Shown: one piece after another, positions 4,701 through 64,000 of the stretch
Position numbering within the stretch: the first letter of the stretch is position 1
Layout of the letters: each line of letters opens with the position of its first letter
Source: Verrucomicrobiota bacterium
Lineage (GTDB): Bacteria > Verrucomicrobiota > Verrucomicrobiia > Chthoniobacterales > UBA10450
Reading direction: 5' to 3'
Assembly (NCBI GenBank): GCA_003217875.1
Contig: QHMR01000017.1
Span: 2,711-66,710 of the forward strand
DNA length: 64,000 nucleotides
Position numbers and translations under genes: made by a program
The notes under the pieces: generated by a model
What the model was told of the DNA's origin: nothing
The model's input: only the letters and a program-made list of their open reading frames with translations
Databases searched by the model: none

Positions 4701-7700
4701 AGTCTGGTGCCACCGGCGACCGTGGCCCTCCTCTTGGCAGGCTGGTTTTTCACGCCTACTCCGATGCTTTGGAGCGGACTTATCGCGGCCCTAATGTTGT
4801 GGCCGGTCCTGAATGCTTTCCTCGAGCTATTGTTCCATCCGCCGCCGCCCGGAACGAGATTTTGGCGCGACCCGCGCGACCGGCTCCTGCGCGTCATGCT
4901 CACGGTTATTTTTCTGGCGGATAATTCGGCCATGGCGCTCGATGCCATTGTTCGCGTCATCTACCGGCGAATCACGTCGCATCGGCTGCTCCTGGAATGG
5001 GAGACGGCGGCGGACGCTCACCGGCGCGCGAGAAGTCGGCAACTGCAATTTATTCTCAGCAGGCTTTGGATTCCCGCTGCCTGCGTGTTCCTTTTCGTCG
5101 GCGCGGCGTCGCGGGGAACCGCGGCGATGGTAGCCGCCGCCCCCTTCCTCCTCTTGGGGGCTCTCTTTCCGATGGCGGTAATGGTGATCAACCGGCCAGC
5201 GAAGAGTTGGCGTGGCGGAACGCTAACGTCGGATGATCGCCGATTCCTGAGCGCGGTCGCGCGACGAACGTGGAGATACTTCGATGATTTTGTCGGACCA
5301 CAGACCTCTTGGTTGCCGCCGGACAATATCCAGGAAACGCCGACGCGGGAAATTTTCATGCGCACTTCACCAACGAACATCGGGCTGTCCATGCTGGCGA
5401 CCGTCGCGGCGAATGATTTCGGTTACATCACCATCGATGATTTGGTGGAGCGCAACCTCCGCACGCTTGAAACCCTGGGCCGGCTCGAGCGTTTCGAAGG
5501 CCATCTTTTTAATTGGTACGACCTGAGCACTCTGGAGCCTTTGCGTCCACGCTACGTCTCCGCCGTGGACAGCGGAAATTTGCTTGCCAGCCTCTGGACT
5601 TTCGAAACCAGTTGCGATGAACTGGCGGCGCGTCCTCTTCTGGATGAGTCCGCATTGCGTGGAATAGCCGACACGCTGAGCGTGCTCCGGCAAATCGCAC
5701 CCAACATGAAACAAGCGGAACGCCCTTCGGCGTTTCTCCGCCTGGCGGAACTGACCATGGGCCAGCCGGCGAATCTGGAAGAAATCATTCTACGTGTAAG
5801 GGCGGCTCGACAGCCCGCGCAAGATCTTCTGCTCCACTACCGCGGACGGGAAACCGATCCGCGGGCTTATTGGGTGCAACAAATTTCGAAGCAGGTCGCG
5901 GCGTGGAATGGCGTCATCGACAAATATCTTCGACCGGTGGAAATTCTGATGTCGCCGCCCGCGCAATTGATGTTGTTAGGCGAGGCGACGCACGAATCCC
6001 GGCGGGAAGCGCTGGCGGCCACCTTTTCGCTACGCAACATTGCCATCGAGGGCATCTCTGGGCTGGTACCACTGCTTCCTTTTTATCAGAGGCGAGAGGA
6101 CCAGGAAATATCTCGCGACGTGCGCGAGTGGCTCGATCTTCTCGTCACAGAGGTCGACCGTTCGCGCCGGAACGCCTCGGAGCAGCTCGCGCAATTGGAC
6201 GAATTGATCGGCCAGAGCCAGCAACTGGAAGGCGGCATGGGGCTGCGATTTCTTTACGATGAGGAACGGCGAATTTTTGCCATTGGGTATCAGGTGGCTG
6301 AGCGCCGGCTTGAGACCTCGTTTTACGATCTGCTCGCAAGCGAAGCGCGCTTAACGAGCTTCCTGGCGATCGCGCGCGGAGAAGTGCCGGTAGAACACTG
6401 GTGGGCTTTGAGCCGGCCCTTTGGATCCGCCTACGGTCGGCTGCCGCTTCTCTCCTGGAGCGGGACGATGTTCGAATATTTGATGCCGCTGTTGTTCACT
6501 CAGACGCATGAGAATTCGCTGCTCGATCGCGCCTGTTACGACGCCGTGCGCTGTCAGATTGGCTATGCCCGGCAAAGCCGCGTGCCGTGGGGCATTTCGG
6601 AATCGGCCTTCAGTGCGCTCGACCGACACAACGTTTATCAATACCGAGCCTTTGGCGTACCGGCGCTGGCATTGAAACGTGGGCAGGAAGACGACCTGGT
6701 GGTTGCACCATATGCCGCCGCGCTCGCTCTCGGCGTGGAACCGGCCGCTGCGATGAAGAACTTGCGGCGGCTCGCGAACCTGGGCGATTCGGCACTGCTT
6801 GGCGATTACGGCTACTACGAAGCAATCGATTATTCGCGCCGCGCGGAACTCGACGGCGCGGCGGGAATCATCATCCACTGTTACATGGTTCATCACCAGG
6901 GAATGTCGCTCCTGGCTTATGACAACGCCTTACATGACAACGCGATGAGGAGGCGGTTTCATTCCGATCCCCGTATTCGCGCCACCGAGCCGCTCTTGCA
7001 CGAGCATATCCCAGAACAAATTTTGCCGACCACCGGTGAGGCGCATGAAGAACGACCTGTGCGCCAGACGATCGCGACGGTCGGCGCTCCCGCCGTGGCG
7101 CAAACACCGGACATCGCTTCGCCGCGCACTCATCTTCTTTCCAATGGAACCTGCTCCGTTACGGTGACTAACTCCGGTGGCGGCTACCTGCGTTGGCTGG
7201 AGCTGGACGTAACGCGCTGGCGCGCCGACGCGACCTGCGACATGTCCGGCCCGTTTTGTTATATCCGGGATTTGGAAAGCGGAACGACTTGGAGCAACAC
7301 CCATCAACCGGTGAGATCTCCCGAGCGCCGTTACACCTGGAGCTTCACGGCGGACAAAGCAGAGTTTCGGCGAAGGAGTGGGCCGTGCGAGACGATCACG
7401 GAAATTGTCATCTCCGCGGAAGACGATGCGGAAGTCCGGCGCGTGACCTTAGTGAATACCTCACGCAAAACATGCCAACTGGAGCTGACGAGTTATCTCG
7501 AGCTCGCTCTTGCGCCGCATCGGACGGACCGCGCGCATCCCGCTTTCAACAAGCTCTTCATCGAAACCGAATGGCTGCCGAATTGCGAAGCTCTTGTCGC
7601 CCGGCGCCGCCTGCGCGGTCCCGACGATCGCTCTGTCTGGGCTGCGCACCTCATGGTCCCAGAATCACCCATTGAGGCGATGGAATTTGAAACGGACCGG

Positions 7701-54953: not shown

Positions 54954-55316
54954 TCAGAATTTTAACCCGGTCGCACGTGCTGCTTCCGCTAATGCCTTTA
55001 CTTTTCCGTGATAAAAAAAACCCCCCCGATCAAAAACGACACGCTCGAGTTTCTTCGCCAGCGAACGTTCCGCGATTGCCTTGCCGATCAATTCTGCCGC
55101 AGCCTGATTGGCACGCAGTTTTTTTCCTTCGAGCAACGAGCGCTCTGTGGTTGAGGCAGCGGCCAGTGTCCGTCCGGCATCGTCATCGATCACTTGAGCG
55201 TAAACGTGCTTGCCAGAAAAATGAACTGCCAGCCGCGGTCGTTGCGCTGTGCCTGCGACTCTCTTCCTGATCCTTTGGTGAACACGCTTCCGCGCTGCCT
55301 TACGAGTCGTCGCCAT
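54954..55316 (-). CDS. rplR: 50S ribosomal protein L18
   Basis: RKRVHQRIRKRVAGTAQRPRLAVHFSGKHVYAQVIDD...FDRGGFFYHGKVKALAEAAR. Confidence 0.97.
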   Translation of the reverse strand: MATTRKAARKRVHQRIRKRVAGTAQRPRLAVHFSGKHVYAQVIDDDAGRTLAAASTTERSLLEGKKLRANQAAAELIGKAIAERSLAKKLERVVFDRGGFFYHGKVKALAEAARATGLKF

Positions 55317-55318
55317 AC

Positions 55319-55858
55319 CTATTGAACCGTCTTGCCCTCTTTGCGACGAATCTGCTCACCCGCGTAGCGCACCCCTTTGCCCTTATATGGTTCTGGAGGG
55401 TAAAACTGACGAATGTCCGCCGCCACCTGCCCGACGAGTTTCTTATCGACGCCTTGGATCGTAATTTTTGTGTTATCCGTGACCGTGATTTTGATGTCTT
55501 TCGGAATCGAAAATGGAACCGGATGCGAGAAGCCGAGGCTCAAGTTGAGGATCGATCCCTGCACCGCAGCCCTGAAACCGACGCCTTCGATTTCGAGTTG
55601 TTTGGTGAATCCTTCACTTACTCCCTGCACCATATTATGGACAAGACTGCGTGAAAGACCGTGTAATGCCTTCGCGCTTCGCGTTTCTGCTCCCCGCACC
55701 ACTGATATTCGGTTGTCTTTCACGCTTGCCGTGATATCGCGCGGGAGTCTCCACTGAAGTTTCCCCTTCGGCCCTTCCACCGAAACCGCTCCGTCACCGT
55801 CAATGTTTACTTTGACCTTGTCGGGGATCTCGACCGCTTTGTTTCCAATTCGTGACAT
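55319..55858 (-). CDS. rplF: 50S ribosomal protein L6
   Basis: MSRIGNKAVEIPDKVKVNIDG...YKGKGVRYAGE. Confidence 0.97.
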   Translation of the reverse strand: MSRIGNKAVEIPDKVKVNIDGDGAVSVEGPKGKLQWRLPRDITASVKDNRISVVRGAETRSAKALHGLSRSLVHNMVQGVSEGFTKQLEIEGVGFRAAVQGSILNLSLGFSHPVPFSIPKDIKITVTDNTKITIQGVDKKLVGQVAADIRQFYPPEPYKGKGVRYAGEQIRRKEGKTVQ

Positions 55859-55863
55859 AAAAT

Positions 55864-56262
55864 TTACCAAACGTATGCCAGCAGTTCCCCGCCGACCTTT
55901 TGTTTTCTCGCTTCGCGTCCTGACAAAATGCCGCGCGAAGTGGACAGAATTGCCAGACCCATTCCACCAAGGACCCGCGGAATTTCGTCCGCGCTAACGT
56001 ATCGGCGCAATCCCGGGCGGCTCACCCGCCGCAACCCTGCGATGGCGCTCGAACGGTTAGCGAGCTTGTTCGTGATCTTGATCTGTGGATGCGCCGCGCT
56101 CGTGTCAATCAAGTAGTCCGTGATGTAGCCTTCATCTTTCAAGATCCGGGCGATCTCGGCCTTGATTTTCGAGTACGGGACCAGTACTTCCGGCTTCTGC
56201 GCCCGCGTCCCGTTACGGAGACGCGCGAGAAAATCGGCAATGGGATCAGTAATAGTACTCAT
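55864..56262 (-). CDS. rpsH: 30S ribosomal protein S8
   Basis: DPIADFLARLRNG.... Its start lies 5 nt after the rplE stop, so no S14 gene sits between them. Confidence 0.97.
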   Translation of the reverse strand: MSTITDPIADFLARLRNGTRAQKPEVLVPYSKIKAEIARILKDEGYITDYLIDTSAAHPQIKITNKLANRSSAIAGLRRVSRPGLRRYVSADEIPRVLGGMGLAILSTSRGILSGREARKQKVGGELLAYVW

Positions 56263-56267
56263 GAGAA

Positions 56268-56840
56268 TCAGGCGGCTTGCGCAGCGGGTTTCTTTGCCCG
56301 GTCGCTAAACGGCATCCCCATCTCGCTTAAAAGCGATTTGGCTTCCTCGTCGGTGCGTGCCGTCGTGACGATTGTAACATCAAATCCGATATTTCGCTTG
56401 ATTTTATCGAGCTCGATCTCAGGGAAGATCGACTGATCCGAAACGCCGAGAGTATAGTTGCCGTGCTTGTCAAAACAACGCGGCGACACGCCGCGAAAGT
56501 CACGAATACGCGGGAGAGCGGCCTTGATGAAGCGCTCGAGAAATTCGTACATGCGCTCTCCACGCAAGGTTACCTTCGCGCCAATCGCCTGACCCTTGCG
56601 TAATTTGAAATTGGAGATGCTTTTCTTCGCCAGGGTTTCCATTGGACGCTGGCCCGTGATCAGCGCGAGTTCGGCTTTGGCTTCTTCCAGCGCTTGCTTC
56701 ACATCCGATTGCGAGCCGATCGAGGTGTTAATAACCACCTTCTCAACCTTCGGAATTTGGTGAACGTTTTTGTAGCCGTGCAGTTTTTGCAGCGCCGACA
56801 TAACCCGCTCCTTGTAATAGCGATGAAATTCGTTTTCCAT
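56268..56840 (-). CDS. rplE: 50S ribosomal protein L5
   Basis: ...VVINTSIGSQSDVKQALEEA...ITGQRP...RDFRG.... Confidence 0.97.
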   Translation of the reverse strand: MENEFHRYYKERVMSALQKLHGYKNVHQIPKVEKVVINTSIGSQSDVKQALEEAKAELALITGQRPMETLAKKSISNFKLRKGQAIGAKVTLRGERMYEFLERFIKAALPRIRDFRGVSPRCFDKHGNYTLGVSDQSIFPEIELDKIKRNIGFDVTIVTTARTDEEAKSLLSEMGMPFSDRAKKPAAQAA

Positions 56841-56850
56841 AGCCTCGCAG

Positions 56851-57141
56851 CTAGCGATTCTTGTTCTTTTTCGCTTTCGACTCTGCAGCTTTCACCGGTT
56901 TCGCATCGCGCTCGATCAATTTCACATTCGAAATATGAATTGGGCCTTCGCGCTCGGCGATCTTGCCGCTCGGATTGTCCTGTGATTTCCGCAGATGTTT
57001 CTTGATAATGCGTACACCTTCGACCAAAACGCGCTGCTTCCCCGGAAACACCGCCAGGATTCTGCCTGAGGAGCCGCGGAAATTCCCGGAGACGACTTCA
57101 ACTTGGTCGCCTTTTCTAACGTGACACTTCATTCGGTTCAT
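56851..57141 (-). CDS. rplX: 50S ribosomal protein L24
   Basis: [24 protein letters not shown]...(KOW motif). ATGA overlap with rplN. Confidence 0.95.
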
Positions 57142-57503
57142 AGCACTTCCGGGGCAAGCGAGACGATTTTCATGAAGTTGCGCTCACGCAATTCGCGCGC
57201 AACGGGGCCGAAAATGCGTGTGCCGCGCGGATTCAAATCTTTATCGATAATAACGATCGCGTTGTTATCAAAGCGAAGCAGAGAACCATCCTCACGTCGG
57301 ATCGGTTGTTTCGTGCGGACGAGAACTGCACGCACCACTTCGCCCTTCTTTACTGTTCCGGTGGCGCTCGCTTCCTTTACGTTCGCAGTGATAACATCAC
57401 CGATCCCGGCGTAACGGGTCGCTTTACCTATCACGCCAATCATGGTCGCCATGCGCGCGCCGCTGTTGTCTGCCACATCTAATCTGGATCGAAGTTGTAT
57501 CAT
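57138..57503 (-). CDS. rplN: 50S ribosomal protein L14
   Basis: [24 protein letters not shown].... Confidence 0.97.
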
Positions 57504-57552
57504 CGAAATCCTCCCTCTTCGTCTTACTGTATCCTTGCACCTGCGTCCGCAG

Positions 57553-57855
57553 CTATTTTCGGACGACCTCCACTAGACGCCATCGCTTCAACTTGCTCAG
57601 TGGTCGCGTCTCCATAATGCGAACAGTGTCGCCGGTCTTCGCCTGATTCTCCTCATCGTGCACATAAAATCTTTTCATTTGTTTGACAATTTTGCCAAAC
57701 TTGGGGTGCGGCACACGCGTGACCGTTCTCACTACAATTGTCTTGTTCATGCTGCTGGAAATCACTTCACCGGTTCGTGTCTTGCGTGCACTACGGTTCA
57801 CCGGCGCGGATTGCGGCGAAGCTGGTGACGGAACTGGTTGATCTTGCTCGGCCAT
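57553..57855 (-). CDS. rpsQ: 30S ribosomal protein S17
   Basis: Start taken at MAEQDQ (ATG 57855, 4 nt after the rpmC stop). The core is [39 protein letters not shown]. Confidence 0.93.
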
Positions 57856-57859
57856 AACT

Positions 57860-58072
57860 CTACTTACTCGCGGTCTGTTTGGCGCGCCGCGACAGCACTG
57901 TTTCGAGCCTGGCAATGTCGCGCCGCAGCAACCGCAACCTGCTTGGCTGCTCAAGCTGGCCACTCTGCTGTTGCAACCGCAGGTGGAGACTTTCCTGGCG
58001 CAAGTCGCGTCTCTTGGTCAGCAATTCGTCCGTGGTCAGCTCAGTGAGTTCTTTCATTTTCATTGTTCTCAA
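57860..58072 (-). CDS. rpmC: 50S ribosomal protein L29
   Basis: [31 protein letters not shown].... Confidence 0.95.
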
Positions 58073-58494
58073 GCGGCCCTGACATGATGTCGTGTAAGAA
58101 ACTTCGTGCGCACCGGCAACTTGTCCGCGGCAAGGCGCAGAGATTCGCGTGCGATCGATTCCGGCACGCCGTCCAACTCAAACAAAATGTTACCAGGGCG
58201 GACTGTCGCGACCCAGTACTCGGGTTGGCCTTTGCCCTTGCCCATACGCGTTTCCGGTGGACGCGAGGTCACCGATTTATCCGGGAAAATACGGATCCAC
58301 AGTTTGCCCTTGCGTTTCATATTGCGAGTGAGCGCGACGCGCGCGGCTTCGAGCTGCGTGTTGGTGATCCAGGCGCGTTCCAATGTCTGCAAACCGAACT
58401 CGCCAAAATCGATTTTTAGATTGCGCGAAGCCGTTCCCTTTCGGCTTCCTCGCTGGGTCTTTCGATACTTCACGCGTTTTGGCATTAACGGCAT
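58069..58494 (-). CDS. rplP: 50S ribosomal protein L16
   Basis: [20 protein letters not shown]...[12 protein letters not shown]. Confidence 0.97.
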
Positions 58495-58505
58495 AAATTT
58501 TCTCT

Positions 58506-59186
58506 TTAGACTTCAACCTGCTCGGGTGCGGGTGGCGGCGGTACGACTGGCTGAGGCGCTGGTTCTTCCTTTTTACACATCCAGCATTTCACGCCGATCT
58601 TACCATAGACCGTGTTTGCTTCCGCGAACCCGTAATCAATCGGCGTGCGCAAGGTATGCAGCGGGATTTTTCCCTCTCGATACCATTCCGAACGCGAAAT
58701 CTCCGCGCCATTGAGCCGGCCAGAACACCGCAGCCGAATTCCCTCGGCGCCAAAGTCCATCGCGGTCTGCACGGCTTTTTTCATTGCGCGGCGATAAGCA
58801 ATCCGCCGCTCGATCTGTAACGCCACATTTTCTGCGACAAGCTGAGCATCTAGTTCCGGCGTTTTGATTTCCTGAATATCGATCTTGACCTGTTTGCCCT
58901 CGGCCATCTTGGAAATTTCTTCCGTCATTTTTTCGATCTCCGCCCCTTTTCGTCCGATCACAATCCCAGGACGGGCGGTGTGAATGGTCACGCGAATTGA
59001 GTTCCACGCCCGTTCGATCACAATTTTCGATACCGCCGCAAATTGCAGCTTCTTCTTCACGTAATTGCGAATCTTCAGATCGCTGTGCAGAAATGACGGG
59101 AATTCCTGCGGCAATGCATACCAGCGCGAGCGCCAGTCTCGGTTTACACTGAGGCGAAACCCGGTTGGATTTACTTTTTGTCCCAT
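58506..59186 (-). CDS. rpsC: 30S ribosomal protein S3
   Basis: [24 protein letters not shown]...KH domain...[17 protein letters not shown]. Confidence 0.97.
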
Positions 59187-59189
59187 AGA

Positions 59190-59675
59190 TTATTTCTTTC
59201 TATTTGCGCTCTGCTTTGGCTTCGCCGCTTTTTTCTCAGGTTCCGCTCCCACGCTTTCTGTAGCCTCGCTCTTCATCTGCTTCTTTGTCGCCTTGTTTTC
59301 CTGTTTCCGTTTCGCTTTTCGCGTTTCTCGCGTCTCGATTGAAATTTCGTCCGATAAAACAATGCGAATGTGACTGGTACGCTTCAAAATCCGGCTGGCA
59401 CTGCCCCGCGCGCGCGCCATGATTCGCTTCAAAGTTGGGCCTTCACCGACAATCGCCTCTTTCACAACCAACCCATCCGGTTTCAGGTTGGCATTATTTT
59501 CTGCATTGGCGATTGCGCTCTTCAGCGTCTTACCAATTAGAAATGCGGCCTTCTTCGGGGTGAAAGCCAGCAGATCGAGTGCTGCGGAAACCGGCAGACC
59601 CTGGATCTCACGCGTGACTTCGCGCGCTTTATACGGCGAAATCCGCGCATACTTATGTATCGATCTAACTTCCAT
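59190..59675 (-). CDS. rplV: 50S ribosomal protein L22 with a Lys-rich C-terminal extension of about 45 aa
   Basis: The core is ARISPYKAREVTREIQGLPV...RARGSASRILKRTSHIRIVL. It is followed by ...RKAKRKQENKATKKQMKSE...KKAAKPKQSANRKK. Confidence 0.95.
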   Translation of the reverse strand: MEVRSIHKYARISPYKAREVTREIQGLPVSAALDLLAFTPKKAAFLIGKTLKSAIANAENNANLKPDGLVVKEAIVGEGPTLKRIMARARGSASRILKRTSHIRIVLSDEISIETRETRKAKRKQENKATKKQMKSEATESVGAEPEKKAAKPKQSANRKK

Positions 59676-60458
59676 TTATCTTAAACTCATATTGGGTTGT
59701 GCATCCACCTGGAGCCGGTCCCCAACTTTTATTCTTTCCTTGCTTGAATTCATTTCCTGAATCACCGCACCGCAAATCTTTTGCCGCACATCGACTACTC
59801 GCAGAATCGCGATCTTTCGATCATCTTGCATCACTCGCATAGGCATCCCAATTTTTACTCCTTGTTTTTCGCCAAGGTTGCCGACTACAAACGACCACTC
59901 CTCCTTCACGCTGATCACGCTCCCATCCATTAGGCCGGGCTCAGGCAGGTCCGGCGTGCTGGTGGACTTTGTGATCAGCGTATTAATGCTGCGCAGCTGC
60001 GCCTCCACTTCCATTCGCGCTTTTGCGTCGCCGCCCTGCGAGGTTTTCAAATAACACAACACCGCTTCGTTCAAGCGCAACATCTCGTCGCGATATTGAT
60101 CGCGCTCTTTTTGCGCAAGTTGAAGATCGCTTACTGCTGCCAGCAAACGCTGCTCCAGCTTCGCCCGATCCTTGTTCGCTGACGCCAGGCCCAGCGCCTC
60201 CATTCGCAATTCGAGATCGGAATATTTCCGGCGGAGTTCTTCTGCCTCCGCGTTGGATTCAGCCAGGCTGCTGGTTAATGCCTTGAGCGACTCCTGTGCA
60301 ATCGACAGTTGCCGTTGCAGTTGTTCGTTTTCCCGCAATGCTTCAGCCGTCGCGGGGGACGCAGCGGTTTCTATCTTCGATTCTGACAAAGAACTGTTTC
60401 CCTGCGCTTGCGCGCAAATCCCAATTGCAAGTTGCAAATTCAAAATTACAAATTGCAC
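59676..60458 (-). CDS. Non-ribosomal secreted coiled-coil protein embedded in the S10 operon (alternative TTG start at 60515)
   Basis: The ORF lies on the operon strand. Its stop TAA abuts the rplV ATG (TAAATG). The predicted product has a signal-like segment VQFVILNLQLAIGICAQAQG, about 150 aa of coiled coil and a C-terminal beta-rich module of about 80 aa. No ribosomal family recognised. Confidence 0.7.
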   Translation of the reverse strand: MQFVILNLQLAIGICAQAQGNSSLSESKIETAASPATAEALRENEQLQRQLSIAQESLKALTSSLAESNAEAEELRRKYSDLELRMEALGLASANKDRAKLEQRLLAAVSDLQLAQKERDQYRDEMLRLNEAVLCYLKTSQGGDAKARMEVEAQLRSINTLITKSTSTPDLPEPGLMDGSVISVKEEWSFVVGNLGEKQGVKIGMPMRVMQDDRKIAILRVVDVRQKICGAVIQEMNSSKERIKVGDRLQVDAQPNMSLR

Positions 60459-60516
60459 GATCCCGCGGCGTAACCGCGACGTGCCAATCTGCAATCTGCA
60501 ATCTTCAATCTGCAAT
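60421..60516 (-). repeat. Two phased 7-nt repeat arrays flanking a GC hairpin at the rpsS/ORF junction
   Basis: Minus strand, first array: ATTGCAG ATTGAAG ATTGCAG ATTGCAG ATTGG. Then comes the hairpin CGCGG-TTACG-CCGCG. The second array is GTG CAATTTG TAATTTTG AATTTG CAACTTG CAATTGG GATTTGC. Confidence 0.8.
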
Positions 60517-60794
60517 TACTTGGTCACCTTCGCCGTGTGCGAACCGTGTTTCTTAAACACACGCGTAGGCGAAAATTCACCGAGCTTGTGGCCAACCATG
60601 TTCTCGGTGACGAAAACAGAATTAAACGTCTTTCCGTTGTGCACCAAAAACGTGTGGCCAACAAAATCCGGCGTCACCATCGAGCGTCGCGACCAGGTCT
60701 TGATCGGTTTCTTGACGCCCGAGCTGTTCATCTTGTCGATCTTCTCCAGAAGATGCAACTCGACGAAGGGTCCTTTCTTTAACGATCTAGCCAT
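60516..60794 (-). CDS. rpsS: 30S ribosomal protein S19
   Basis: [19 protein letters not shown]...[33 protein letters not shown]. Confidence 0.97.
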
Positions 60795-60906
60795 AAAAAT
60801 CAAATGGTAATTGGAATCCGGAAGCTAGGAATCCAGGAGGAATTTGAAGTCCGGTTTCCTACATTCCTGTTTTCCTGATTCATCTTCTTCTGCAAAATTT
60901 TTCCGA

Positions 60907-61755
60907 TCAGGCTTTTTTCTTCGGCCTTCGCCTTTCCAAAATAAAACGGTCGCTCGGTTTATGTTTGCTGCGCGTTTTGAATCCTTTGGCCAGTTGTCCC
61001 CACGGACTGACTGGATGATGACGGCCGCCACCGCCTTTTGACTTCCCTTGTCCGCCACCCATGGGATGATCAATCGGATTCATCGCCATGCCCCGCACGT
61101 GCGGCCGGCGCCCTTGCCAGCGAGTGCGTCCCGCTTTGCCGCTCGACACATTCATGTGATCAACGTTCCCTACTTGGCCAACCGTAGCGAAACAGTTCTC
61201 GTGAATCCGTCGAATTTCGCCGGAGGGCATTTTCACGAGGGCGTAACCCGCCTCGATATTAGTTAACGTTGCCTGTTGCCCAGCGCTGCGCGCGACCTGG
61301 CCGCCACGACCGGGACTCAATTCGATGTTATGAATGTTCGTGCCAAGCGGAATGGCGCGAAGCGGCAGAGCATTTCCCAACTCAGGTGGAACATCATCTC
61401 CGGAGATAACCGTCGATCCTACTCGAAGCCCGTTTGGCGCAAGGATATAACTTAGCTCGCCATCTGAGTATTTGATAAGAGCGATTCGGGCAGAGCGGTT
61501 CGGATCGTACTCGATCCCTATAACGGCCGCTGAGACACCGCGCTTGCGCCGTTTGAAATCCACTTTGCGATATTTGTGCTTATGACCGCCCCCGATGTGA
61601 CGTGACGTAAGGCGGCCGTAGTTGTTGCGTCCGCCGGATTTGTTCTTCGGCTCAACCAACCTTCGTTCAGGGCGCCATTTCGTGATTTCATCGAAGCCAG
61701 GCAGCGACTTGAAACGCAGCGTTGGCGTTAGTGGGCGAAATTCCTTTAGAGCCAT
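60907..61755 (-). CDS. rplB: 50S ribosomal protein L2
   Basis: [23 protein letters not shown]...[18 protein letters not shown]. Confidence 0.97.
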
Positions 61756-61768
61756 ATGTGTCTCCCCA

Positions 61769-62050
61769 TCAGATGAGGTCGAGCTTTTCCCCTTCCTTCA
61801 ACGTCACGATGGCTTTCTTCCACCGCGGCCGCCGTCCTAAGGGGCCTCGCACACGCCTCTCCTTGCCGGCGTAATTACATGTATTGACATCGACAACTTT
61901 CTTTTGAAACAGCCGCTCAATTGCGTTCTTGATCTGAAGCTTGTTCGCTTTCGGACTGACGCGGAAGACATACTTGTTTTGCTTTTCGCTCATCAACGTC
62001 GATTTCTCAGTCAATGAGGCGGTCTGAATAATCTCGTGCGGCTCGTTCAT
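61769..62050 (-). CDS. rplW: 50S ribosomal protein L23
   Basis: ...[33 protein letters not shown].... Confidence 0.95.
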
Positions 62051-62054
62051 TGCA

Positions 62055-62690
62055 TCACTCCGTAGTTTGATGACTCCGCGGCGACCGGGTCCGATCCGCT
62101 AATTGTTCGAGTGCCTTCTGGGTGACAAGAATCTTCTCGAACGCCAGCAATTGCTCTGTGTTTACATCGGAAGCGGTCGCAAGCGTCACCCGCTTGACGT
62201 TGCGTCCCGATTTCAAGGTTGTTTGATCGAAGGTGTCCGAAATTAAAAGAACTTTCCTCGCGTCGGTTTGTTTTTTCACCAACGCAACGAAGGCCTTCGT
62301 TTTCAGCTCTGACACGGCGAATTTTTCGGTCGTCAAAACGTCGCCGGACTTGATGCGCTCGCTCAAGGCTTTCCGAAACGCCAGGCGCCGTAATGATTTT
62401 GAAATCTTTTTGGAATAATCGCGCGGCTTTGGGCCAAACACGACGCCGCCACCTCGCCATATGGGCGATGATTTGTAACCGGCGCGAGCGCGGCCAGTTC
62501 CCTTCTGCCGCCAGGGCTTTGCACCAGAAAGGTCCACTTCCGCTTTGGTCTTTGTGTTAGCCGAACCGGAACGACGCGCTGCGCGCATCGCAACGACCAC
62601 ATCATGGACGGCCTGGCTACCGCGTCCATCTTCAATAATGTCGATTCTCGCTTCCTTCGCTGCGGCTTTGGTCAAAACTTTGGCGCTCAT
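62055..62690 (-). CDS. rplD: 50S ribosomal protein L4
   Basis: ...GAKPWRQKGTGRARAGYKSSPIWRGGGVVFGPKPRDY.... Confidence 0.97.
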   Translation of the reverse strand: MSAKVLTKAAAKEARIDIIEDGRGSQAVHDVVVAMRAARRSGSANTKTKAEVDLSGAKPWRQKGTGRARAGYKSSPIWRGGGVVFGPKPRDYSKKISKSLRRLAFRKALSERIKSGDVLTTEKFAVSELKTKAFVALVKKQTDARKVLLISDTFDQTTLKSGRNVKRVTLATASDVNTEQLLAFEKILVTQKALEQLADRTRSPRSHQTTE

Positions 62691-62693
62691 TTC

Positions 62694-63404
62694 TTATCGG
62701 ACGGTTATCGCGGGCTTCTTCGCCGCCTCCTGTTCGTCGTGTTTCCGGTGCGCCGCGTGCGTCGCCAGCACTCTTTCCGGATGCTTGATAGCTGGCCTAA
62801 CTATCACGTATCCACCGTTCGGCCCGGGCACCGCACCGCTGACTAAAATCAATTTCTCGGCTTCGCGCACCTGCAGGATTTGGAGATTTTGCACAGTCAC
62901 ACGCTCGCTACCGAGGTGCCCTGGCATTCCCTGGTTCTTCCAAATGCGTCCGGGCGTAGAACGATTGCCGACTGCGCCGATGCGCCGATGCGTTTTCGAA
63001 CCGTGCGCTGCGCCCTGTCCATGGAAATTATGCTTCTTCATCACTCCCTGAAATCCCTTTCCTTTCGATCGACCAATCACATCCACATAGTCGCCTGGTT
63101 GAAACTGGGTAACGTTTAAATTGATCTCGCCTTCAGGGAGATCGCTTGTCAGGCGAAACTCGCGCACAAATTTCTTTGGCTCGACTCCGGCCTTTTTAAA
63201 CTCACCCAACGACGATTTTATAACACGGGATTCCTTCTGAGCGCCGAACGCAACCTGCACCGCTGAATATCCGTCGTTTTGGTGGGTCAAGCGGCGCAGT
63301 AAAACATTATCGCCCGCCGCTATCACAGTCACAGGGTGCAATCGACCTTTGGCGTCGTAAACGCTGGTCATACCGATTTTTTGTCCAAGAAGTCCGATGC
63401 TCAT
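62694..63404 (-). CDS. rplC: 50S ribosomal protein L3 (with a ~25-aa basic C-terminal tail)
   Basis: MSIGLLGQKIGMTSVYD...GKGFQGVMKKHNFHGQGAAHGS.... Confidence 0.97.
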   Translation of the reverse strand: MSIGLLGQKIGMTSVYDAKGRLHPVTVIAAGDNVLLRRLTHQNDGYSAVQVAFGAQKESRVIKSSLGEFKKAGVEPKKFVREFRLTSDLPEGEINLNVTQFQPGDYVDVIGRSKGKGFQGVMKKHNFHGQGAAHGSKTHRRIGAVGNRSTPGRIWKNQGMPGHLGSERVTVQNLQILQVREAEKLILVSGAVPGPNGGYVIVRPAIKHPERVLATHAAHRKHDEQEAAKKPAITVR

Positions 63405-63441
63405 GACCGTGCGATTGCAAATCTTTCAGAAGCGCCTCCGC

Positions 63442-63753
63442 TTAAATCTTAATGGTAATGTCAACGCCCGCAGGCAAGTTCAGTTTCTTTAGTTCATCCA
63501 CTGTCTTGGCCGTTGGCTCGATGATGTCCAACAGCCGTTTGTGGGTGCGAATTTCAAATTGTTCCATGGACTTTTTGTCAACGTGCGGGGAACGATTCAC
63601 CGTAAACTTCTCGACTAATGTCGGTAGCGGAATAGGACCGGCCACGCGTGCCCCGGTGCGCTTGGCGGTCTCCACGATCTCCACGGCGGATTGATCCAGC
63701 ATCCGGTGATCGAACGCCTTCAAGCGAATCCGAATTCGCTGGCCATTGCTCAT
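63442..63753 (-). CDS. rpsJ: 30S ribosomal protein S10
   Basis: [41 protein letters not shown].... Confidence 0.97.
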
Positions 63754-64000
63754 TTGCCCTCTTTCTGATCGAGAATGGCCGGAACCAGGTTCGCCGGCAC
63801 GGGCTGGAAATGCGAAGGTTCCATCGAATAACTGGAGCGACCCTTCGACAGCGAACGAATGGCAGTCGCGTAACCGAACAACTCGGCGAGTGGAACCTCG
63901 GCGTGAATAATCGCGAGGTTGCCGCGCGTTTCGATGTTGTTGATGCTGCCACGGCGCCGACTCAAGTCACCGCAAATGTCTCCCTGAAACTCGTCTGGAG
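63750..64000 (-). CDS. fusA: Elongation factor G, C-terminal end (gene continues past the window end)
   Basis: ...[65 protein letters not shown].... The stop overlaps the rpsJ start (ATGA). There is no tuf between fusA and rpsJ. Confidence 0.9.

Follow-up and report, generated by a model that had tools for sequence, protein, structure and literature searches.

A gene outside the ribosomal families, designated X, was found between the ribosomal protein genes rpsS and rplV of the S10 operon in a stretch of 64,000 nucleotides (nt; hereafter the window) from a Verrucomicrobiota bacterium (GenBank assembly GCA_003217875.1, contig QHMR01000017.1, positions 2,711 to 66,710). X is the open reading frame (ORF) at 59676-60515 on the minus strand, and a comparison of gene order and sequence in related loci shows it, at that level, to be an operon passenger of ancient origin and vertical inheritance rather than a recent insertion; that it is a real gene, that its product is exported, and that the arrangement is ancient is together considered very probable. 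Few gene adjacencies in bacteria are as invariant as the rpsS-rplV junction, and X is apparently an unreported, lineage-wide exception to this near-fixed order. As the best overall explanation, favoured with some confidence, X would be an ancient periplasmic scaffold protein that is transcribed with the ribosomal proteins and tuned at the level of translation.

Gene order, age and coding status of X

The genes on the minus strand of the window are arranged in the order rpsJ-rplC-rplD-rplW-rplB-rpsS-X-rplV-rpsC-rplP-rpmC-rpsQ-rplN-rplX-rplE-rpsH. The reading frame of X comprises 279 codons from a TTG at 60515, adjacent to the stop codon of rpsS (ribosomal protein S19; 60516..60803, minus strand; TAA at 60516-60518), or 260 codons from an alternative GTG at 60458. 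Its own stop codon (TAA at 59676-59678, minus strand) abuts the ATG (59675-59673) of rplV (ribosomal protein L22; 59190..59675, minus strand), forming the junction TAAATG. Among 40 sequences, comprising 39 related loci and the window, the X stop and the rplV start abut, overlap or stand 4 nt apart (TAAATG, ATGA) in 26. The surroundings of X showed no promoter-like site and no more terminator-like sites than expected by chance, from which we infer that X would be transcribed on the polycistronic S10 mRNA.

At least 44 related loci, labelled mostly Candidatus (Ca.) Udaeobacter, Chthoniobacterales or Verrucomicrobia, were recovered in a scan of species-representative genomes. The order rplB-rpsS-X-rplV-rpsC was present in all 38 loci having both flanks, and the six truncated loci were consistent with it. 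The rpsS product is 88-98% identical in 38 related loci; the identity of X (65-90%) decreases in parallel with that of the neighbouring ribosomal proteins, the pattern expected under vertical inheritance. Six remote contexts were also compared, those of homologues only 26-50% identical to the window protein: in five (P0279, P0132, P0220, P0428 and P0441) X lies between genes matching the Pfam families Ribosomal_S19 and Ribosomal_L22, and in the sixth (P0260), located on a short contig, L22 follows directly after X. Fused gene calls joining X to L22 (P0142 and P0169) or S19 to X (P0127) agree with the same order. Ribosomal_S19 was matched at the positions orthologous to rpsS in loci L045-L052, and the positions orthologous to rplV carry Ribosomal_L22. 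Intergenic gaps in the remote relatives measure 16-48 nt and 4-26 nt. The metagenome-assembled genomes (MAGs) in the clusters are named as Terrimicrobium sp., Chthoniobacterales, Chthoniobacteraceae, Verrucomicrobiaceae, Verrucomicrobiales and a marine Verrucomicrobiota MAG. Since X holds the same position across these orders, it would have been in place before they diverged, and gene order shows that its place between rpsS and rplV was already fixed when the Chthoniobacterales and Verrucomicrobiales separated. The insertion is thus an old lineage trait, not a peculiarity of this genome, and provides a clean synapomorphy-type marker for at least these two orders.

The coding status of X was assessed from pairwise ratios of non-synonymous to synonymous substitution (dN/dS), which show, as far as sequence comparison goes, a genuine protein-coding gene under purifying selection. 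The ratio was 0.11 for mature X (0.13 for the helical part and 0.09 for the barrel described below), with values of 0.05 for rpsS and 0.03-0.05 for rplV. At E<=1e-3, 4361 homologues of the window protein were recovered from the database, and the entry identical to it is annotated as a hypothetical protein from a Verrucomicrobia MAG of soil. Frameshifted or truncated copies of X, which could be sequencing errors or pseudogenes, were noted at L038 4001-4690 and L043 3846-4640. An artefact, whether a misassembly, a chimeric contig or a chance ORF, found no support apart from the frameshifts in these two copies, and it is practically excluded by the recurrence of the arrangement in at least 44 loci from MAG projects independent of one another and in the six remote contexts, by the number of homologues and by the dN/dS of 0.11.

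A preliminary description of the window, made from its sequence, had placed X as wedged within the operon and filling the whole rpsS-rplV gap up to a TAAATG junction. The coordinates match exactly, and the embedding is borne out by the common strand, the tight spacing, the conserved position and the lack of a promoter-like site of its own or of an excess of terminators. The synteny comparison that it proposed found rpsS-X-rplV kept in all related loci compared and in the six remote contexts; the possible misassembly and the possible lack of selection that it had raised are refuted by these loci and by the dN/dS of X, respectively.

Non-ribosomal passengers are classical in the spc (secY, adk, map, infA) and alpha (rpoA) operons. 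Like X, these are embedded among ribosomal protein genes and conserved in position over long distances, and secY, like X, is linked to the envelope; they are near-universal, whereas X splits rpsS-rplV in the S10 operon, is apparently restricted to Verrucomicrobiota and encodes what is predicted to be an exported soluble protein. We know of no passenger of the S10 operon, and of none that splits rpsS-rplV. A literature search covering Verrucomicrobia and the S10 operon, rpsS/rplV insertions, signature proteins of the Planctomycetes-Verrucomicrobia-Chlamydiae (PVC) group, FlgT_C and Udaeobacter found neither a report of X or its arrangement nor a counter-example of an S10 passenger.

Predicted product of X and its relatives

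At the level of sequence and structural model, the product of X is shown to consist of a Sec-type signal peptide without a lipobox, a conserved mature N-terminus, approximately 130 helical residues in three segments and a six-stranded barrel of FlgT_C type. A profile of the C-terminal domain was compared against 1.84 billion cluster representatives and matched 864 proteins at E<=1e-3, each standing for a cluster at 50% identity, of which 175 were matched at E<=1e-10. Family members are typically 255-285 amino acids long, with the domain at the very C-terminus. An alignment of 88 diverse representatives revealed a constant plan of signal peptide, helical region, further helices, linker and C-terminal motif. 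The mature N-terminal motif (G/N)SSL(S/T)(D/E) is often present among these 88, the helical region carries the motif L(T/S)ESLAxANxEAExF(K/R)R..L.LRxEALG, with a nearly invariant Gly, and the C-terminal motif reads G.V(I/V)SVK..L.LVV.N.G...GVK.GMPF.V.R....IG.VRVVDVR..I.GAVIQ........I.VGD; the C-termini themselves are variable across the family. A search started from a profile built on the remotest members gave 8 matches and no further taxon names, the selection of candidates being swamped by coiled-coil words. The window protein matched no family in Pfam or NCBIfam, where it returned coiled-coil noise and a weak HupF/HypC match (0.0086) that was set aside. A ribosomal protein or translation factor was rejected, given that no such family was matched in Pfam, NCBIfam or the PDB and that signal peptides occur throughout the family. 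The interruption of the operon by X flags an uncharacterised family (864 clusters, no Pfam family) that is probably important, and abundant or growth-coupled, in soil-dominating (Ca. Udaeobacter) and aquatic bacteria.

The maximal signal-peptide coding region spans 60405..60515 (minus strand; residues 1-37 of the 279-codon ORF). In the window it encodes an n-region ending in ..SRLRRG, the h-region IVQFVILNLQLAIGIC and the c-region AQA, with cleavage predicted at AQA/QG (the slash marking the site). Sec signals were called using manual and heuristic tests. Eighty-five of the 88 family representatives begin with M and have typical n-h-c signal peptides, and in remote relatives an ATG start and a canonical signal peptide precede the same SSL motif. 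All of the Udaeobacter and Chthoniobacterales lineages encode n-h-c peptides, which differ in sequence and end in AQA/Q, ARA/Q, VQA/Q, ANA/Q or LAA/Q. From the rpsS stop to the SSL motif the X frame contains a stop in one of the 39 loci, and the other two frames are interrupted in 20 and 36 loci (31 and 82 stops); X is the only frame that is hydrophobic upstream of the mature N-terminus. These results support Sec export of X through a predicted n-h-c signal peptide with an AXA-type cleavage site.

The first mature residues, SSLSES, are encoded by a block, AGTTCTTTGTCAGAATC (60379..60395, minus strand), that is conserved at the nucleotide level. In the 40 sequences AGT TCT TTG and the following GAATCC or GAATCG-AAG are almost invariant, synonymous sites included, with few single-base changes; elsewhere in X synonymous sites are saturated (dS approximately 1). 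The AGTTCTTTG core is found in L045, L046 and L048 as well (30-49% protein identity), with GAATCCAAG in L048, and TCA, or GAATCC in L048, is likewise kept. No conserved local pairing that would account for the invariant block was found. The conservation of this block and of the purine-rich stretch before it could be read to mean that translation starts at the TTG within it, that the 120 nt upstream form a structured non-coding leader, and that the product is a cytoplasmic coiled-coil protein, possibly associated with the ribosome. The first stretch of about 120 nt after rpsS is unusually repetitive, an SD-like (Shine-Dalgarno-like) AGGGA lies 9 nt upstream of this TTG, two conserved hairpins precede it, and dN/dS reaches 0.73 in the putative signal-peptide codons. 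Such a cytoplasmic product is nevertheless very improbable, and an internal TTG start was rejected, on account of the ATG and signal peptides of the remote relatives, of the TTA that replaces the invariant TTG in L034, which argues against an internal start, and of the frame test, in which the upstream X frame is open in 38 of 39 loci and uniquely hydrophobic. In addition, barrels of FlgT_C type are periplasmic, and a high dN/dS is normal for signal peptides.

The helical or coiled-coil region (59961..60356, minus strand; residues approximately 54-185) was delimited using the secondary structure of a single-sequence, full-length AlphaFold2 (AF2) model, the tertiary structure of which was unusable (predicted local distance difference test, pLDDT, 47.8). 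Its three segments are separated by a nearly invariant EALG turn (G109) and by TSQGGD. The C-terminal barrel (59706..59924, minus strand; residues approximately 198-270) was obtained by AF2 from residues 158-279 with an alignment of 71 sequences, which gave a helix followed by a six-stranded barrel at a mean pLDDT of 86 (95-97 in the barrel). When this model was compared with the PDB using Foldseek, the top matches were 8z5n (Vibrio LPHT ring, 6.4e-4) and FlgT 3w1e (8.4e-4); MreC 2j5u was matched at E 1.1e-3 with 23% identity, and the remainder, from rank 3 (6wnq, 1.0e-3), were mostly N-terminal barrels of F1/V1-ATPases. Pfam FlgT_C (PF16538) matched 25 of 89 family members at E<=0.01, its cut-off of 27 bits not being reached by in-operon members (best P0250, 26.5 bits). 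The profile of the X barrel leads to P0270 (E 5.4e-12), and P0270 in turn matches FlgT_C with 41.5 bits (1.8e-10). A sequence-profile search of the PDB gave weak matches to a MexC-like adaptor and to TsaP. By profile and model, the predicted barrel is a divergent domain of FlgT_C type, a fold that serves in the periplasm for the docking of proteins.

These results bear on the preliminary description of the product, which had proposed an exported, non-ribosomal protein in three parts. No ribosomal or translation-factor family was matched, the export signal is corroborated by the remote relatives and by the open, hydrophobic X frame of the Udaeobacter loci, and the three parts correspond to the hydrophobic N-terminus, the helical residues 54-185 and the beta-rich C-terminus, now modelled as a six-stranded barrel. 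Its statement that no known family could be recognised holds for ribosomal, Pfam and NCBIfam families and fails for the C-terminal module, which is no orphan, as the profile and structure searches that it had suggested recovered relatives of FlgT_C type.

In the Vibrio motor, the C domain of FlgT is a periplasmic docking scaffold that contacts MotY (bioRxiv 10.64898/2025.12.02.691832). Two distant relatives located outside ribosomal operons, P0186 (L049 1975-3120) and P0270 (L053 513-1736), combine an N-terminal membrane helix and a coiled coil with two tandem barrels of FlgT_C type; murA-mreB-mreC and PBP2 are found two genes downstream of P0186. Together with the role of the Vibrio domain, this neighbourhood points to the cell envelope. 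Exported X would accordingly form an elongated periplasmic scaffold, in which the coiled-coil stalk presents the barrel to an envelope partner such as the cell-wall or outer-membrane machinery, a role that is proposed tentatively, at somewhat less than even likelihood.

Comparison with characterised proteins places X close to several of these without equating it to any. The C-terminal domain of FlgT (PF16538; 3w1e, 8z5n) is, like that of X, a small periplasmic six-stranded beta-barrel, and the FlgT-like domains of TsaP match X weakly by profile; X differs in its S10 rather than flagellar or pilus context, in the long coiled coil that carries its barrel and in having no LysM domain, and FlgT proper was rejected given the absence of FlgT_N and FlgT_M domains. 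MreC resembles X in layout, a membrane or signal segment at the N-terminus being followed by a coiled coil and then by periplasmic barrel structure, but it has two barrels where X has a single one, and the signal peptide of X is probably cleaved. MreC was rejected on an hhalign probability of 0.3% against bona fide MreC, weak matches of Pfam MreC (PF04085) in two of 89 members and the ribosomal context, X showing no sequence relationship to MreC and lying outside any mreBCD cluster. A membrane-fusion protein of the HlyD/AcrA kind was rejected in the absence of Pfam HlyD matches, a single 35-residue profile match to a MexC-like chain (E 0.009) being the sole trace. Braun lipoprotein Lpp and other coiled-coil periplasmic spacers share with X export, a dominance of coiled coil, an expected coupling to growth and potentially large amounts; X is much longer, carries a folded barrel and has no conserved C-terminal Lys, and an Lpp-like lipoprotein was rejected since a lipobox-like motif occurs in one of 88 members. 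With X, barrels of FlgT_C type become known outside flagella and pili as well.

RNA hairpins and proposed expression of X

Two RNA hairpins are predicted at the start of X. Hairpin 1 (60426..60514, minus strand; approximately 90 nt) pairs the spacer after the rpsS stop with signal-peptide codons. Its 5' arm consists of four ATTGCAG-type heptamers starting one base past the rpsS stop, its apex is a GC-rich stem-loop (CGCGG-UUA-CGCCGCG region), and its 3' arm, built of CAAUUUG-type repeats, encodes the hydrophobic core of the signal peptide. The candidate starts of X are located at the foot of this hairpin or near its apex. Hairpin 2 (60401..60418, minus strand) is a short GC stem-loop, UUUGCGC-GCAA-GCGCAGG, that overlaps the c-region codons (ICAQAQ). 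The 156-nt region 60370-60525, which contains both hairpins, was folded at -61.8 kcal/mol (z = -6.26 against shuffles). A long hairpin was predicted at the equivalent place in most of 38 loci folded, with arm sequences completely different between lineages, and a short GC stem at the place of hairpin 2 in nearly all, again with differing sequences; the fold of L025 was no better than that of its shuffles (z = 0.2). The mRNA strand was more stable than its complement in 39 of 39 loci (mean -55.1 versus -35.9 kcal/mol), because of 4-15 G·U pairs. Among 16 close relatives, changes at the 36 pairs of hairpin 1 were mostly wobble-compatible, with double changes at 3 pairs, as were substitutions over the 43 pairs of both hairpins. 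Rfam gave no relevant match at E<=1 in 55000-64000. A DNA inverted-repeat finder missed hairpin 1 because the stem depends on G·U pairs, and a raw sliding-window scan of minimum free energy, dominated by GC-rich regions, was uninformative.

Translational coupling through start-sequestering hairpins is classical in ribosomal-protein operons and RNA phages. As in those systems, the initiation region of X is predicted to be base-paired in a stem that starts at the upstream stop, where a terminating ribosome would melt it; the predicted X stem is unusually long (approximately 35-45 bp), is built of G·U-rich heptamer repeats and overlaps signal-peptide codons. In the Udaeobacter lineage the initiation region of X would thus be locked in the hairpin of about 90 nt, and translation of X would occur mainly as ribosomes completing rpsS open the stem, which amounts to translational coupling with attenuation. 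The non-ATG start would lower the yield of X further, and its burial in a long hairpin argues for attenuated translation. Ribosomes terminating on X would come to rest at the rplV ATG or one base inside it and so pass the coupling on. A stem of this length could alternatively serve as an RNase III site. Coupled or attenuated translation through the hairpin is given an even chance. The stoichiometric co-expression of X with the ribosomal proteins that had been suggested at the outset probably does not hold in Udaeobacter. The supply of X would be tied to growth rate through the ribosomal operon, by the same logic as for secY in the spc operon, and X would offer a natural system for studying the dosing of a passenger gene in a ribosomal operon, with a hairpin over the start and signal codons, a non-ATG start and a stop/start overlap with rplV.

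The hairpins could instead be selfish or neutral palindromic repeats, such as repetitive extragenic palindrome-like or miniature inverted-repeat transposable element-like (REP/MITE-like) sequences built of tandem heptamers, that inserted into the spacers on either side of X and take no part in regulation. A second hairpin of the same heptamer style, an insert of approximately 86-117 nt between the X stop and the rplV ATG, occurs in 13 of the 40 sequences (L002, at 4781-4885, L006, L008, L010, L013-L015, L019-L021, L025, L028 and L042) and is missing from the others, close relatives and the window included. It carries tandem heptamer-like GTTGAAGCG or GTTACAA repeats and also GTTACAAAG, and the rpsS-X and X-rplV hairpins may belong to one family of repeat-hairpin elements in Udaeobacter genomes. 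This patchy distribution and the complete turnover of the arm sequences between lineages speak for selfish or neutral repeats. On the other side, every lineage has hairpin 1 in the equivalent position, where it overlaps codons; G·U pairs make it more stable on the transcribed strand in all 39 loci, which points to selection on the RNA; and the 64-kb window contains no other copy of the heptamer array. Repeats devoid of a role are rated as unlikely. A frozen accident would account for the location differently: X would have landed once between rpsS and rplV and been trapped there, having no promoter of its own and being embedded in an essential operon that excision would disturb, so that its location would say nothing about function or dosage and the hairpins would only damp over-expression. 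The insertion is indeed single, old and invariant in position, the related two-barrel proteins are encoded outside ribosomal operons, the start other than ATG and the hairpin that sequesters it in Udaeobacter resemble damping of expression, and by dN/dS the evolution of X is about two times faster than that of the adjacent genes. Yet no sampled lineage has moved or lost X, though gene order evolves freely elsewhere, the tight spacing and the stop/start overlap with rplV have been maintained, and X is retained in Ca. Udaeobacter MAGs. An accident of this kind is judged unlikely, though still a serious contender.

Several points weigh against reading X as a tuned periplasmic scaffold, beginning with the fact that its position could be such an accident, carrying no selective meaning. 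Co-transcription, coupling and attenuation are deduced from sequence, and the start codon is ambiguous, the candidates in the window being TTG at 60515, the TTG at codon 8 and GTG at 60458, with ATG at codon 8 or codon 19 in some metagenomic variants of X. Among the remote relatives, the long hairpin was seen in L046, with a Shine-Dalgarno sequence and ATG in the loop that joins its arms, and was not seen in the others, where spacers are short (16-39 nt) and starts are ATG; the hairpin therefore cannot be essential to the residence of X in the operon and is a lineage-specific refinement, not the reason for the position of X. For the barrel, Foldseek support is marginal (E approximately 1e-3, TMq 0.47-0.48), the fold is generic enough that ATPase N-terminal barrels score similarly, and the link of the window protein to FlgT_C is transitive only, Pfam FlgT_C giving no match to it even at E<=10. 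The taxonomic breadth is based on MAG labels, in a sample outside which lie Opitutales, Methylacidiphilales and other PVC phyla.

In its most far-reaching form, the scaffold reading would have Verrucomicrobiota couple the production of a periplasmic scaffold of their own lineage, consisting of a coiled-coil stalk and a docking barrel of FlgT_C type, firmly to ribosome synthesis. In Udaeobacter, a soil genus of very high abundance, a G·U-rich heptamer-repeat hairpin of a novel type would set the dose, doubling as signal-peptide coding sequence and accompanied by the nucleotide-invariant element at the first mature codons. This combination is speculative and, as a whole, improbable. If true, the scaffold might be a spacer between outer membrane and cell wall, or a wall-building component replacing proteins that these bacteria lack.

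Neighbouring features of the ribosomal cluster

The actual start of rpsS is probably the ATG of MARSLKKG, and no Shine-Dalgarno-like sequence was found before rpsS or rplV. The rplB-rpsS spacer (60804-60906, minus strand; 103 nt) contains repeats of GGAAxC/GGATTCC type and is hairpin-like in appearance; a structured RNA was rejected there, folding being no better than in shuffles (z -1.1). In the window rplE is followed after 5 nt by rpsH (55864-56840, minus strand) with no rpsN (S14) between them, as in L045 (7667-8642) and distant relatives, and S14 must be encoded elsewhere or be absent from the ribosomal cluster. Directly upstream of rpsJ lies fusA (C-terminus of EF-G), not tuf, both in the window (63750-63965, minus strand) and in L045 and L046 (1-900). 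The L22 protein (59190-59675, minus strand) bears a C-terminal extension of approximately 50 residues rich in Lys, Glu and Ala, and the length of the L22 tail differs widely among relatives (134-210 amino acids). The S17 ORF (57553-57963, minus strand) has a long N-terminal extension if upstream starts are used.

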